IMG/VR virus record: IMGVR_UViG_2740892234_000011
Reading direction: 5' to 3' (one strand)
Source of the DNA: a virus
Taxonomy: Duplodnaviria > Heunggongvirae > Uroviricota > Caudoviricetes
Length of the DNA stretch: 6,206 nucleotides
Shown: positions 1,868-5,981 of the stretch, in pieces
Numbering within the stretch: position 1 is the stretch's first letter
Layout of the letters: each line of letters begins with the position of its first letter
Program-made: the position numbers and the translations under genes
Notes under the pieces: generated by a model
Database searches by the model: none
The model's input: only the letters and a program-made list of their open reading frames with translations
What the model was told of the DNA's origin: nothing

Positions 1868-2023
1868 TTACTCCTCAGGTTCGTAAGCTGTGAAGACAGC
1901 GACCTCCGTCTGGCCGGTTCGGATTCGTACCTCGCAGAGGTCTTTCCTCGTTACCAGTGCCGTCACTATGACGGTTAAACAGATGACGATCAGGGCGATT
2001 AACATCGCCTTTTGCTGCTTCAT
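1868..2023 (-). CDS. hokD: Hok/Gef-family type I toxin, 51 aa, HokD/RelF-like
   Basis: ATG 2021-2023, TAA 1868-1870: MKQQKAMLIALIVICLTVIVTALVTRKDLCEVRIRTGQTEVAVFTAYEPEE. Single TM helix plus conserved C-terminal RKDLCEV..TGQTEVAVF..YE as in Gef/HokC and HokD. SD AAGGAG 9 nt upstream. Family is certain; the hokD-versus-hokC paralog call is from memory. Confidence 0.85.
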   Translation of the reverse strand: MKQQKAMLIALIVICLTVIVTALVTRKDLCEVRIRTGQTEVAVFTAYEPEE

Positions 2024-2080
2024 AGCCTGCTTCTCCTTGCCTTTCGGCACGTAAGAGGCTAACCTACGTTTGTGAAGCAT
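1868..2080 (-). CDS. mok-like reading frame, 70 aa, in-frame N-terminal extension of hok
   Basis: ATG at 2078-2080 gives MLHKRRLASYVPKGKEKQA followed by the complete Hok sequence, the same arrangement as mokC/hokC in E. coli K-12. Confidence 0.5.
   Translation of the reverse strand: MLHKRRLASYVPKGKEKQAMKQQKAMLIALIVICLTVIVTALVTRKDLCEVRIRTGQTEVAVFTAYEPEE
2037..2065 (+). promoter_or_regulatory. Putative sok antisense promoter
   Basis: -35 TTGCCT (2037-2042), 17-nt spacer, -10 TAACCT (2060-2065), antisense inside the mok N-terminal codons. Arrangement mirrors what I recall of the R1 sok promoter; not verified. Confidence 0.4.
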
Positions 2081-2150
2081 AGATTGGGCCTCAGATTAAT
2101 GTTAAGCGTCTTGCAGGACGCGTAATGTTAACTGGGGCTTTTCTCTGTCT
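2072..2150 (+). ncRNA. Putative Sok-like antisense RNA, complementary to the hok leader and mok start; ends approximate
   Basis: Starts just downstream of the putative -10, is complementary to the mok start/SD region, and contains a hairpin gcgtc-ttgcag-gacgc (2106-2121). The 3' end is not defined and the N-gap begins at 2154. Confidence 0.3.
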
Positions 2151-2153
2151 GCC
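2081..2153 (-). promoter_or_regulatory. hok mRNA 5' leader (mok-proximal part), truncated by the N-gap
   Basis: Minus-strand sequence GGCAGACAGAGAAAAGCCCCAG...GCAAGGAGAAGCAGGCTATG is collinear with what I recall of the R1 hok leader. Confidence 0.5.
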
Positions 2154-2163
2154 NNNNNNNNNN

Positions 2164-2284
2164 CAAAGCATGAAATTGGCCTCAGATTAATGTTAAGCGT
2201 CTTGCCGGACGCGTAATGTTAACTGGGGCTTTTCTCTATCTGCCTTTTGGTGTTCATGCCTGAGGCAGATAGCCTCAAGCACCC
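2164..2284 (-). promoter_or_regulatory. hok mRNA 5' leader, second copy, including the 5'-terminal hairpins; begins at a mok ATG (2169-2171) at the gap edge
   Basis: Minus strand reads GGGTGCTTGAGGCTATCTGCCTCAGGCATGAACACCAAAAGGCAGATAG...: a 5' hairpin GAGGC/GCCTC and a long-range stem ctatctgcc/ggcagatag, matching the 5' end of R1 hok mRNA as I recall it. Differs from block D at two positions in the 67 nt they share. Confidence 0.55.
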
Positions 2285-2290
2285 GCAGCA

Positions 2291-2319
2291 ATTCTAACTA
2301 TCCAATAGATCAATGCCAA
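2291..2319 (-). promoter_or_regulatory. Promoter of the hok mRNA
   Basis: On the minus strand: -35 TTGGCA (plus 2314-2319), exact 17-nt spacer, -10 TAGAAT (plus 2291-2296), about 7 nt upstream of the inferred hok mRNA 5' end near 2284. Confidence 0.6.
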
Positions 2320-2671
2320 CTTCTTTTCCTGCAACATCTCTCATCATAAGTGACCCAAATTCATCCAATCAGCACAAAAGAAACATTTAAAGCGTGAATG
2401 CTACCGAACGTTCATTTCAATTACATCGTTTTGATTTTTAACAGTTTTCACCTCAACAAATCAAATGGCATTAGCATTCATCATGGAAGAAAGACTGATA
2501 AAAATGATCATTTTCAATGACTTATGATCACACCGGGTATTGCCAAGTCATTCCTTTTACGCCAGGATACCCACAAGTGAGTAGTCGAGGAGAGTTTGCC
2601 AATTTTTGCGATATAAATTTCAATGTCCGAAGAACCATTAATTGTTAATTGATTCTGTATAAGGTATTAAC

Positions 2672-3769
2672 ATGACAATTTCATATATTCCTATTCTGAA
2701 AGCGAAACGTTCTGAGTTATCAGCTTTATCGCAGCTATCCATTGAAAAGAAATCAAAAATTTTGCCATTACTCGAAATTGAACCAGTGCCAATTGACCCT
2801 GATTCAGGTATTGCCTTAAAGAGTTATAACGAGACTCTTATAGAGTTCGGAAAGAAAGTCTCAAAATCTTGCTCAGATATGCAAGGTGTTTATATTGATG
2901 GATTATTAATTGAAGAGCATTTTATTTCTCCTGAAGATCATTACCCTATAATAAATGCGGTTAATCAAGTTAGAGATATGGGGATAAGAGTTATTCCTGT
3001 CAGTTCACCAACTCGCCCATCTAACTATAAAAGAGCGATTGATGAATTAATGCAGAATGAAATATGCTTGAGATTAACCACGTTAGATCTGGTTAACCCA
3101 CAATTAATAACGCATTACATTAATCATCTGGGAATTCCTTTATCAAATATTGATATAATTATTGACTTAAGAGATGAGTTAACCGAGGATAAAATTAATT
3201 CCGGCGAACTATATACTTTGGCAATGGGATTGATAAACAATCTGGCGCACCTCAATGAATACAGAAAAGTGATTCTTTCTGGGGGTTCATTTCCTACAGA
3301 TCTCAGTGATATTTCTGTTGGTCTATATTCTCAACCTCGAATCGAGTGGATTTTATGGCAGAGTTTAATGAATAGAAAAGAACTTGCCAGAAATGTGATT
3401 TATAGTGATTATGGAGTACAGCACCCCGACTTTAATAGGCTTTCGACGCGATTCCCTAGCGTATCTGCCAGCGTCAGATACTCTGGAGATAATGACTTTT
3501 GGGTATTTCGAGGAAGAGTAGCTAATCGCTTTGGTTATGAACAATATGGTAAACATAGTGAGGATATTCTTGCTCATCGAGAATATTCAGGGCCTACATT
3601 CTGTGCGGGAGATAGAGACATAGAATATTATGCAAACGAGTATCAAGCCTACAAAGCCAATCCCTCTGGTAACTATAAATTTGGTAGCCCAGAGGTATGG
3701 CGTAGGATTGGGCAAAACCATCACATAACTAAGGTTGTTGAGCAACTCGCCACTCTTTACGGGCTTTAA
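2672..3769 (+). CDS. Hypothetical protein, 365 aa, no family confidently assigned; candidate component of a two-gene defence module
   Basis: Single long ORF, ATG 2672 is the first start after an in-frame TAA at 2660-2662, stop TAA 3767-3769; AAGG 7 nt upstream. AT-rich codon usage unlike the flanking genes. Soluble-looking, only 3 Cys, no obvious Walker, HNH, HEPN or PD-(D/E)xK motif. N-terminus MTISYIPILKAKRSELSAL. Confidence 0.85.
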   Translation: MTISYIPILKAKRSELSALSQLSIEKKSKILPLLEIEPVPIDPDSGIALKSYNETLIEFGKKVSKSCSDMQGVYIDGLLIEEHFISPEDHYPIINAVNQVRDMGIRVIPVSSPTRPSNYKRAIDELMQNEICLRLTTLDLVNPQLITHYINHLGIPLSNIDIIIDLRDELTEDKINSGELYTLAMGLINNLAHLNEYRKVILSGGSFPTDLSDISVGLYSQPRIEWILWQSLMNRKELARNVIYSDYGVQHPDFNRLSTRFPSVSASVRYSGDNDFWVFRGRVANRFGYEQYGKHSEDILAHREYSGPTFCAGDRDIEYYANEYQAYKANPSGNYKFGSPEVWRRIGQNHHITKVVEQLATLYGL

Positions 3770-4307
3770 GTTTAACTCGAACAGCTTCACGAAGCTCGCC
3801 AACATCCATACTATTGGCGAGTTTTGACCATAAGACGCGTTTAGGTTTATTTTTCAAATTCTGTAGCTCCCCTACATCACTTAATAGGGAAAGCAATTCA
3901 TCTTTCCAAAGAAGCATTGTTAAGGAAAGTTTGTCCACTTGTGGATTCAACTTGCTAGTTCGAATTGTTTTTAAATGGATACCTTGCCGTGCACCTTGCG
4001 TAACTTGCTTTATCCCCCACCATGATGGAACTATGCTTAAAGCATCATAAAGATGGCAATCAGAGACAACCAAAGTTACTTTATCCATCACTGATGAGTA
4101 ATGTTGCACCTGCGCTGGTAATCTGAGCAAGTTATCACTCTTGCTCTTCAACTCATAACCATGTATAAGCCCATTGATCACTGCTATATCAGCTCTGCTA
4201 GCCCCTAGATTCATCGTAAACTCATCAATGATTAGGGTGTCAGGATCTTTATGATGATCTCTCAGAATCTTGGCATGCACAGCCTTTCTTACATCAATGT
4301 CTCTCAT
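3729..4307 (-). CDS. Hypothetical protein, 192 aa, with a PD-(D/E)xK nuclease-like signature; candidate effector of a two-gene defence module
   Basis: ATG 4305-4307 is the first start after an in-frame TGA; stop TAG 3729-3731. N-terminal region ...TLIIDEF TMNLGASRADIAVINGLIHGYELKSKSD gives E29, D40, E52-x-K54 in alternating hydrophobic strands, typical of the restriction-endonuclease fold. The C-terminal half looks helical. The 3' end overlaps the 365-aa CDS by 41 bp. Confidence 0.8.
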   Translation of the reverse strand: MRDIDVRKAVHAKILRDHHKDPDTLIIDEFTMNLGASRADIAVINGLIHGYELKSKSDNLLRLPAQVQHYSSVMDKVTLVVSDCHLYDALSIVPSWWGIKQVTQGARQGIHLKTIRTSKLNPQVDKLSLTMLLWKDELLSLLSDVGELQNLKNKPKRVLWSKLANSMDVGELREAVRVKLKARKEWRVAQQP

Positions 4308-4612
4308 ACCATAGTTGCGCTTTCATCGACTCTCTCAAGCCATGATTCTATATCATGGTTCGCATGAATGCCATTTGATATGACCAGTGGTTAAACATTG
4401 CACAGAAAAGTGGATGTGTATTTTAACAAAAGCAATGACGGCTAACCATGTTGGTATGTCGATAAAATGTTTCAACGTAAGCATTATCTGTTCCGCCCTT
4501 TCAGACGGTCTCCTGATGTTCTGAGGGTGCAGAATCCCTCCGGTTAAGGATTTAATAAAAATCGTTTCTGATTTAAATCTTCAGTATTTAGTTGTTAGTC
4601 GGTTTATAGCCT

Positions 4613-4924
4613 TTATGCTTCGGCCTTATTTCGCAACCAGACACAAACCGGGCCATCTTCCGTATCATGAATGGAACCAATAAACCAGCCATCGCCCTCT
4701 GGTCGTTCCGGTTCCCATGCAGAAATATCAGCATCACACGCATCAAGGTCAGCACATCCTTCATCTCTGAAGCAGAGGACGTATTGAAGATTATTTTCCT
4801 CCATCCAGGCGTTAAACTCTTCCGTTGAAATATATTCCCGACCGTCACAGAATTTTTCATATTCAGGATGCGTCCAGCAGCCATATTCATCACGTACTAC
4901 TGGTGTTTCTTTAATTTCATTCAT
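4613..4924 (-). CDS. Hypothetical acidic prophage protein, 103 aa
   Basis: MNEIKETPVVRDEYGCWTHPEYEKFCDGREYISTEEFNAWMEENNLQYVLCFRDEGCADLDACDADISAWEPERPEGDGWFIGSIHDTEDGPVCVWLRNKAEA. Its start overlaps the stop of the upstream gene (4917-4924), and GC content is typical of the prophage backbone. Confidence 0.7.
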   Translation of the reverse strand: MNEIKETPVVRDEYGCWTHPEYEKFCDGREYISTEEFNAWMEENNLQYVLCFRDEGCADLDACDADISAWEPERPEGDGWFIGSIHDTEDGPVCVWLRNKAEA

Positions 4925-5171
4925 TTCTGTTCTCCCACGTTTTCAGACTTTCACCACAGAACGGACAAAATGAAACCCGAACTGGTAATTTAGAAAATTC
5001 ACCGGAACGCAACATCACAAAATCAGGACCGCGAGTTAAACTCTCATTCCAGATTTTGTATATCAGCAGACCTTTTCGCATCGTGTATTCAGCATCATGC
5101 TCAAGGGACTTTGCCAGTGCTGCACATGGTTCTATCTTGTTGCCATTAACCTGGCATTTTGATTCACTCAC
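4917..5171 (-). CDS. Hypothetical small Cys-containing prophage protein, 84 aa, possible zinc-ribbon
   Basis: MSESKCQVNGNKIEPCAALAKS...VSFCPFCGESLKTWENRNE with Cys at 6, 16, 69 and 72 (CPFC). Its start overlaps the Ren-like stop by 4 nt. Confidence 0.65.
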   Translation of the reverse strand: MSESKCQVNGNKIEPCAALAKSLEHDAEYTMRKGLLIYKIWNESLTRGPDFVMLRSGEFSKLPVRVSFCPFCGESLKTWENRNE

Positions 5172-5590
5172 CGCACCACCTCCTCAAAATTCCCCTGATA
5201 AAACGCCAGTACGCGCTGCATAACTTCGCTCTTCCGGCACTCGAGACAGATTATGTTCAGACGCCTGTCGTAGCGGCGTATTTCGCCATCTGGTAATGAC
5301 CAGATAAGGTCCGGATCAACCGCAGATGGTTTCTTCAGCTTTGCCCTTGAGAGTTTTTTGCGGGCATTTTGCCAGTCTTTACGAGCCTGTTCAGACGGGA
5401 ATAACCCGTAGCCAGAATTGTATACATCGCCACTGGCAACCAGCTCTCTGGCCAGAACGCTCATCAGATATCTTGTTGCCCCAGTTTTAGTTTCCAGTTG
5501 TCGTAACGTCTCGCGCCCACTCTGGCGTACGAGTTCAACAACCTGCCCTTTAATTTTTTCCCGCTCTTCTTGTGTAAAAACTTTTGCCAC
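5168..5590 (-). CDS. Lambda Ren-like protein, 140 aa
   Basis: GTG start 5588-5590 with AGGAGG 4 nt upstream. The C-terminus CLECRKSEVMQRVLAFYQG resembles the lambda Ren C-terminus FKECRQSAAMKRVLAVYG as I recall it, and ETKTGATRY resembles Ren AALTGATV. Position downstream of replication genes matches lambda ren. Confidence 0.7.
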   Translation of the reverse strand: MAKVFTQEEREKIKGQVVELVRQSGRETLRQLETKTGATRYLMSVLARELVASGDVYNSGYGLFPSEQARKDWQNARKKLSRAKLKKPSAVDPDLIWSLPDGEIRRYDRRLNIICLECRKSEVMQRVLAFYQGNFEEVVR

Positions 5591-5737
5591 AAGCCCTCCT
5601 GAAAATTACCCCATGACCTGAAATCTGTTACCCTCTGAATCCCGGCGGAATTTCGGTGTCCGGTTCAGAAATATGATTAACACAACGCTGGTTGTTCGTG
5701 CCGCTTACCGGGAGCAACCAGGGGTTTNNNNNNNNNN

Positions 5738-5971: not shown

Positions 5972-5981
5972 NNNNNNNNNN

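Follow-up and report, generated by a model that had tools for sequence, protein, structure and literature searches.

What does a pair of genes that is conserved across bacterial phyla, and built into two validated anti-phage systems, do when a prophage carries it without the other components of either system? The question is raised by a 6,206-nucleotide stretch of viral DNA (IMG/VR record IMGVR_UViG_2740892234_000011), here called the window, to which all coordinates below refer. Its longest open reading frame (ORF), at 2672-3769, encodes a 365-amino-acid protein that a first-pass annotation, made from the letters alone, had described as having no assignable function. This was too pessimistic: the protein belongs to the Beta family, its gene converges on and overlaps a sce7726-family gene for a predicted PD-(D/E)xK nuclease, and the two together form a core common to the PD-lambda-2-type (PMC9519451) and P4 gop-beta-cII (PMC9122126) systems, both validated as anti-phage defences. 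The genes had also been labelled already, since RefSeq lists an identical protein (WP_000156213.1) as 'beta family protein' and the partner as 'sce7726 family protein', while the record of phage Rac-SA53 names the pair 'beta' and 'CII phage-like protein'. In its stand-alone two-gene form, the pair fits neither published system definition.

The Beta protein and its nuclease partner

The two genes and the sites tied to them are arranged as follows.
2661-2664, plus strand: AAGG Shine-Dalgarno sequence of the Beta gene, 7 nt before the ATG
2672-3769, plus strand: Beta-family gene, 365 amino acids, ATG start, longest ORF in the window
3729-4307, minus strand: sce7726/P4-cII-family gene, 192 amino acids, convergent to Beta, encoding a PD-(D/E)xK domain and a C-terminal helical domain
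3729-3769, convergent 3' ends: 41-nt dual-coding overlap, encoding Beta residues 353-365 and sce7726 residues 180-192

An in-frame TAA at 2660-2662 rules out an upstream extension of the Beta ORF and leaves the ATG as its only possible start; the first-pass annotation had described an isolated ATG start and the largest gene of the cargo. The same description had mentioned AT-rich codon usage and the lack of a signal peptide or transmembrane segment, and these points held up as well: the GC content of the ORF is 37.2 % (29.8 % at third codon positions, GC3), no hydrophobic segment was found in the protein (maximum Kyte-Doolittle 19-residue mean 0.94), its N-terminus is not signal-peptide-like, and its model is that of a soluble barrel.

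The family was settled by the profile hidden Markov model (HMM) searches that had been proposed for this gene. Beta matches Pfam PF14350 (Beta_protein) with 178.3 bits against a cut-off of 27 (E 3.8e-52), residues 5-356 aligning to positions 1-341 of the 342 in the model, and it also matches PHROG 9159 (E 5.5e-145). The earlier suggestion of a Beta (sce7725-like) family was therefore right about Beta and wrong about sce7725: against the sce7725 model NF033831 (cut-off 60) the protein reaches only 12.3 bits (E 0.1), confined to residues 5-39, where its first ~35 residues resemble the sce7725 N-terminus. The cut-off was likewise missed by eight further Beta proteins taken from paired loci, which sets sce7725 apart as a partner family of its own, perhaps distantly related. 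At 50 % identity the Beta family itself falls into about 4,300 clusters. Neither of the two proteins gave a significant match when all PDB chains were searched by sequence and by profile, leaving Beta without a close solved relative, and in the literature on sce7725, sce7726, PF14350, gop-beta-cII and PD-lambda-2 we found no mechanistic or structural study.

The N-terminal motif noticed in the first pass is indeed conserved: 34 homologues, reaching down to 25 % identity, show no variation at Y5, P7, L9, K12, E15 and A18, and Y5 and E15 are retained in 71/75 loci. The window protein has the complete family motif Y-x-P-x-L-K-x-K-x-x-E together with D165, D246 and H351, and these last three residues are retained in 75/75 loci. 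Structure prediction had likewise been proposed at the outset. The AlphaFold2 model, built from family alignments, is confident (predicted local distance difference test, pLDDT, 93.5; predicted template-modelling score, pTM, 0.92) and is a compact, soluble, alternating beta/alpha barrel of the triosephosphate isomerase (TIM) type with a C-terminal helical extension. The near-invariant residues E15, D76, R134, D165, R223, D246, R269/Y270, W343 and H350/H351, which are 93-100 % conserved over the 75 loci from many phyla, map to the predicted barrel strands or to positions directly following them, where TIM-barrel active sites usually lie. The make-up of this pocket (Asp/His/Glu with Arg/Lys) suggests a metal-assisted reaction on, or the binding of, a phosphorylated ligand, and its catalytic-looking conservation suggests an enzyme rather than a passive regulator; the role of sensor or regulatory partner given to Beta in the first pass is plausible.

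Scanning Beta permissively against Pfam (E up to 10) revealed no hidden enzyme family and no tRNA-guanine transglycosylase (TGT). We rejected an identity as a TGT/DpdA-type transglycosylase, such matches being no better than those to dozens of unrelated TIM barrels, and the possibility of a pseudogene or annotation artefact is ruled out by the full-length HMM match, the intact ORF in 93 genomes and the high-confidence model.

The small partner anticipated by the first-pass annotation is the 192-amino-acid product of the convergent gene, a bona fide sce7726 member scoring 191.1 bits against NCBIfam NF033832 (cut-off 70, E 1.7e-56; residues 1-184 aligned to positions 1-183 of 184). The sce7726 family is the same as 'cll' in PADLOC and as Pfam PF26915 (Phage_P4_cII), and PF26915 is carried by homologues of the partner. 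In its AlphaFold2 model (pLDDT 93.7) the protein has a restriction-endonuclease-like alpha/beta core and the signature of the PD-(D/E)xK superfamily, formed by E29, D40 and E52-x-K54, all four residues being retained in 75/75 loci. The partner is a predicted PD-(D/E)xK nuclease with an intact motif, and some sources name it 'regulatory protein' or 'exonuclease'. The Shine-Dalgarno sequences of the nuclease genes are weak or absent.

A convergent overlap conserved across phyla

A degenerate-pattern scan, keeping one genome per species, gave 79 loci that span Enterobacterales, Firmicutes, Actinomycetota, Chloroflexota, Acidobacteriota, Gemmatimonadota, Nitrospirota, Saccharibacteria, Bacteroidota, Myxococcota and others. 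Using the HMMs of both families, the nuclease gene was found in 78 of 83 sources and was downstream of and convergent to Beta in every one of these 78, while three of the five sources lacking it had no room for one on the contig. Where the two genes are adjacent, their 3' ends overlap in 72 of 75 pairs, by 4-140 nt with a median of 44 nt (41 nt in the window), and the length of the overlap equals 2 modulo 3 in 71 of those 72; the three non-overlapping pairs, P4 among them, are separated by gaps of arbitrary length. Because the phase has stayed constant while the stop codons shift only by threes, we conclude that the overlap is ancestral and was inherited continuously, never lost and re-created. 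The same layout was obtained in independent samples whose contexts were picked via the nuclease or via the PD-lambda-2B protein. The phase-locked 3' overlap has been kept across phyla, and the two partners have co-evolved (Mantel r 0.84, reached by 0/999 permutations), the nuclease being the more conserved of the two in 95 % of comparisons, as expected of an effector paired with a faster-evolving sensor.

Individual loci depart from this layout. Two of the 78 have an insertion between Beta and the nuclease, one of a CHAT-domain protease and a 151-amino-acid ORF (L067, 6109-8582), the other of a DDE transposase of an insertion sequence (L076, 6031-7467), and in a third locus (L063, 6346-7194) an A-B-Beta operon, with the PD-lambda-2 genes A and B described below, lacks the nuclease and is followed by an unrelated methyltransferase.

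Three candidate transcription signals lie around the two genes.
2596-2624, plus strand: promoter candidate of the first pass, TTGCCA-17-TTCAAT (hexamers at 2596-2601 and 2619-2624), present and unsupported
4345-4374, minus strand: candidate sigma-70 promoter of the nuclease gene, ATGGCA-18-TAGAAT, a consensus match only
3790-3826, plus strand: 13-bp hairpin followed by UUUU, just past the Beta stop codon, within the coding region of the nuclease, with a minimum free energy z-score of -4.2

The sigma70-like promoter that had been proposed upstream of Beta exists as letters, both hexamers and the 17-nt spacer being where they were placed, but it did not survive as a signal: the TTGCCA/TTCAAT pair is not listed by a consensus scan because its -10 hexamer lacks an A in second place, promoter-like sites number 8 in the region where shuffled sequence would give 8.1, and other genera share no conserved signal upstream of Beta. 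In relatives (L004-L010), a conserved, extended -10-like TCGTGCTATA lies in the equivalent region upstream of the nuclease gene, ~60-70 nt before the sce7726 ATG. The hairpin at 3790-3826 could be a local terminator of the Beta mRNA, specific to the window. We abandoned the idea that a terminator downstream of the Beta stop is a conserved, embedded feature, since RNAalifold gave no conserved pairs and hairpins are not enriched over the 75 loci. Terminator-like hairpins were not enriched after either stop (4 % and 9 %, against 6 % in controls) by a method that does detect the known P4 terminator, which implies that the two transcripts generally run into each other.

Relation to PD-lambda-2 and P4 gop-beta-cII

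PD-lambda-2 consists of a HigB-like protein A, an Xre-type helix-turn-helix/M78-peptidase protein B and a Beta-family protein C; B is toxic alone and is neutralised by A, while C, described as 'related to a P4 phage antitoxin', is needed for defence and not for toxin neutralisation (Vassallo et al. 2022, PMC9519451). Of the relatives that have been studied, PD-lambda-2C comes nearest to the window Beta, which is much closer to it than to P4 beta, matches the PADLOC PD-Lambda-2_C models PDLC03983 (E 1.8e-41) and PDLC03984 (E 1.7e-38) over their full length, and retains the full set of pocket residues found in PD-lambda-2-type Beta proteins. The window differs from PD-lambda-2 in having neither A (HigB) nor B (Xre-peptidase), with no PADLOC or Pfam match and no suitably sized ORF for them, and the published three-gene definition differs from the window pair in lacking the nuclease. 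Clustering of the upstream genes of the 79 loci, confirmed by Pfam and PADLOC, separated the following architectures.
A + B + Beta + nuclease: 9 sources
B + Beta + nuclease: 18 sources
A + Beta + nuclease: 1 source
A + B + Beta, no nuclease: 1 source
Beta + nuclease only: 48 sources
Beta alone: 6 sources

A/B components stand upstream of Beta in 27-28 of the related loci, and 27 of the 79 Beta-sampled loci are PD-lambda-2-type operons that end in a convergent, overlapping sce7726 gene. When loci were sampled via the B protein, the four-gene layout of HigB, Xre/M78, Beta and convergent cII was present in 7/7, from which we conclude that PD-lambda-2-type operons usually include the nuclease.

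The front ends of these operons vary. In 14 PD-lambda-2-type loci (L033, L039, L040, L044, L048-L052, L055, L056, L059, L061 and L077), an extra ORF of ~200 amino acids, matching nothing in Pfam or PADLOC, occupies a gap of ~525-600 nt between the Xre-peptidase gene and Beta, and actinobacterial loci have other upstream ORFs that could not be assigned. HigB and ImmA/IrrE (Xre-peptidase) pairs also occur without Beta or cII on plasmids of Acinetobacter (L094) and Paraburkholderia (L095), their B proteins being ~40 % identical to the PD-lambda-2B type, so the A/B front end is a separable module.

In P4 the gop-beta-cII genes (Rst_gop_beta_cll; Ghisotti et al. 1990, as cited in PMC9122126) are not essential, and they confer protection against lambda and P1 (Rousset et al. 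2022, PMC9122126). Cell killing by the system is set off by one phage protein, that of orf184 (bioRxiv 10.1101/2023.04.06.535777). P4 beta neutralises the toxic Gop (PMC9122126). The window resembles P4 in its convergent beta/cII pair, RefSeq naming P4 cII 'sce7726 family' and P4 beta 'beta family', and in its nuclease, which is 28 % identical to P4 cII (E 2e-17). The differences are these: there is no gop in the window (no PADLOC gop match, and upstream only ORFs of 40-43 amino acids without matches); the window Beta is just 23 % identical to P4 beta and is matched by the PADLOC 'beta' model at the N-terminus only (E 2e-4); P4 beta, unlike the window Beta, has lost several near-invariant pocket residues; P4 beta and cII do not overlap but lie 27 nt apart with a terminator between them; and the window pair resides in a lambdoid prophage rather than in the P4 cos-proximal hotspot.

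Prophage setting and proposed role of the pair

The pair sits in a Qin/Rac-like lambdoid prophage, between replication/Ren-like genes and hokD, in the slot that in K-12 Qin is held by relBE, directly beside hokD. It forms the only two genes of a low-GC cargo block, and a third component (gop, HigB or Xre-peptidase), sought in the window by ORF, PADLOC and Pfam searches, was not found. The block shares with lambda rexAB and with the relBE and hok-sok genes of Qin/Rac prophages the character of accessory low-GC cargo in prophage hotspots; it differs from them in its gene organisation (convergent overlap), and there is no sequence or fold relationship. The cargo and its surroundings are as follows.
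2285-4612: low-GC cargo block (37.9 % GC; flanks 55 % and 49.6 %), bounded by the hok/sok locus and the phrog_1372 gene
1868-2080, minus strand: hok/mok-type toxin gene adjoining the cargo on the left (Pfam HOK_GEF, E 3e-23)
2018-2284, minus strand: Sok antisense RNA (Rfam RF01794, 108.8 bits), the match crossing an N joint
4613-4924, minus strand: phrog_1372 prophage gene, 103 amino acids
4917-5171, minus strand: phrog_4030 prophage gene, 84 amino acids
5168-5590, minus strand: DUF977/Ren-like exclusion protein, 140 amino acids
426-435, 870-879, 1447-1456, 2154-2163, 5728-5737 and 5972-5981: joints of ten N
126-425/437-736, 652-869/883-1100, 1346-1446/1776-1876, 2075-2153/2166-2244 and 5233-5465/5739-5971: repeated segment ends, 90-94 % identity

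The three genes on the right overlap each other by a few bases in an operon-like manner. As the joints and repeats indicate, the window is a mosaic and not one natural contiguous sequence: runs of ten N divide it into segments whose flanks are partly duplicated (90-94 % identity) and look like alternative alleles stitched together. Positions 2164-5727, which include the cargo, show 100 % identity to the E. coli 2013C-3264 chromosome and are the sole part of the window that matches a single genome at 100 %. An element of 101 nt is present in two copies (1346-1446 and 1776-1876, 94 % identity) and contains the hairpin AAACCCGCCGAAGCGGGTT; on the minus strand both copies give sub-threshold Rfam matches to isrK (27 bits, gathering score 50) and rsmX (22 bits), and ~330 nt of very AT-rich, ORF-poor DNA separates them. 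The Rfam scan found nothing in the cargo, and in the flanks just Sok and these sub-threshold matches.

Among 5,426 complete E. coli genomes, 93 (1.7 %) carry the cargo together with its 387-nt upstream region (2285-2671), and those listed are largely of Shiga toxin-producing E. coli serotypes, e.g. O111, O121, O26 and O103. In Rac-SA53 (L100, 3674-4439; equivalent to ~4464-4471 of the window), an IS1 flanked by the target duplication AAACATTT has entered 166 nt before the start of the nuclease gene, and both ORFs are intact. E. coli also has another Beta/cII pair, of 355 and 206 amino acids with a 59-nt overlap (L083-L085; in L083, cII at 3134-3754 and Beta at 3696-4763), in a hotspot different from that of the window: it lies in lambdoid prophages, with the Rz lysis gene on one side and terminase Nu1 on the other. 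In a Wohlfahrtiimonas prophage (L098/L099, 3501-5840), Beta follows immediately after a CI-type repressor gene (HTH_3 and Peptidase_S24), reads in the same direction and lies opposite cro; the position directly downstream of the CI repressor is that of rexAB in lambda, and suggests expression of Beta in the lysogen. Beta/cII pairs are further found near the integrase in Gordonia phages and in temperate phages of Mycobacterium; the pair occupies at least four unrelated prophage or satellite positions, as well as non-phage chromosomal contexts, in many phyla.

We infer for these two genes a role in defence, a division of labour in which one partner senses and the other kills, and an antisense coupling between them. 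The reading that we favour, at somewhat better than even odds, is that of an autonomous prophage-borne anti-phage module with the PD-(D/E)xK protein as effector and Beta as an enzyme-like sensor or controller, the two being coupled by convergent, terminator-less transcription. A Qin/Rac-like lambdoid prophage would carry the pair as a horizontally acquired 'moron', and the lysogen would be protected against other phages, most likely by abortive infection or superinfection exclusion. The nuclease would be the effector that cuts nucleic acid; Beta would gate the nuclease by binding or turning over a ligand of phosphorylated or nucleotide type, or a phage trigger; and antisense pairing or transcriptional interference would probably keep nuclease expression low and tied to the expression of Beta. 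Several observations weigh against this proposal. The ECOR42 clone of PD-lambda-2 has flanks of ~390 nt only, too short for an intact nuclease gene, and still defends, which means that the nuclease is not always an essential effector. P4 beta is described as an antidote to Gop and not as a sensor (PMC9122126), and extrapolation from P4 is in any case weak because P4 beta lacks several of the pocket residues. No conserved promoter precedes Beta in related genera, and none is supported for the gene in the window. Phage Mx4 carries a sce7726-like gene without Beta, inside a co-directional gene array.

A wider version of the proposal, which we offer tentatively and believe in rather less, holds that Beta/cII is an ancient, self-contained immune module: the TIM-barrel enzyme would make, destroy or sense a small phosphorylated or nucleotide signal, or a phage protein, that licenses the nuclease; the overlap would act as an antisense or transcriptional-interference switch; and PD-lambda-2 and P4 gop-beta-cII would be decorated versions of this module, with the nuclease as the ancestral effector.

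The strongest competitor, although in our view an unlikely one, casts the pair as a toxin-antitoxin addiction module that keeps the prophage stable, with the nuclease as toxin, Beta as the antitoxin protein that blocks it, and defence as an incidental effect. The neutralisation of Gop by P4 beta and the description of PD-lambda-2C by Vassallo et al. as related to a P4 antitoxin both speak for it, as does the genomic slot, which holds relBE in K-12 and adjoins hok/sok, and the tight co-inheritance of the two genes. Type II toxin-antitoxin pairs, on the other hand, normally form co-directional, autoregulated operons, whereas the pair is convergent in all 78 nuclease-carrying sources, and in the window the two genes, convergent with a 3' overlap, are not a co-directional, co-transcribed unit. 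A passive antitoxin would not need a 365-residue TIM barrel with an Asp/Arg/His pocket conserved across phyla, and PD-lambda-2C is dispensable for toxin neutralisation in its own system. The roles of toxin-antitoxin and abortive-infection system are not mutually exclusive.

Two further explanations fare worse. It is quite improbable that the pair works like restriction-modification, with Beta modifying host DNA or the nucleotide pool as DpdA/TGT-type transglycosylases do and the nuclease cutting unmodified incoming DNA. The TGT-type matches of the barrel are no better than those to dozens of unrelated TIM barrels, neither a TGT nor any other enzyme family appeared in Pfam at E up to 10, and both PD-lambda-2, which defends without the nuclease, and gop-beta-cII, whose killing one phage protein triggers, act as abortive-infection systems, unlike restriction-modification. 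Least credible of all, and very improbable, is a role in the life cycle of the phage rather than in host defence, either in lysogeny control, the historical reading of the P4 name 'cII', or in recombination or DNA processing. It would suit the labels 'regulatory protein' and 'exonuclease' given to the partner in some sources, the position of the pair between cI and recT/yqaJ in one prophage, and the solo gene in the co-directional array of Mx4; it is at odds with the many unrelated prophage, satellite and chromosomal positions of the pair, with its presence in just 1.7 % of E. coli genomes, and with P4, where the pair is non-essential and confers defence.

If the pair were an ordinary exclusion module of the toxin-antitoxin kind, the result would be incremental. 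Its interest lies in the Beta family, which is required in PD-lambda-2 defence and forms part of P4 gop-beta-cII, and for which the stand-alone core in E. coli prophages offers a minimal 2.3-kb construct for working out Beta's role. Our results also suggest that the three-gene definitions in PADLOC and DefenseFinder miss this stand-alone form, as well as the nuclease of PD-lambda-2-type loci. A TIM-barrel immune sensor or enzyme would, if true, be an unusual addition to bacterial immunity, and the cross-phylum convergent overlap is a rare, testable case of gene arrangement as a regulatory device.

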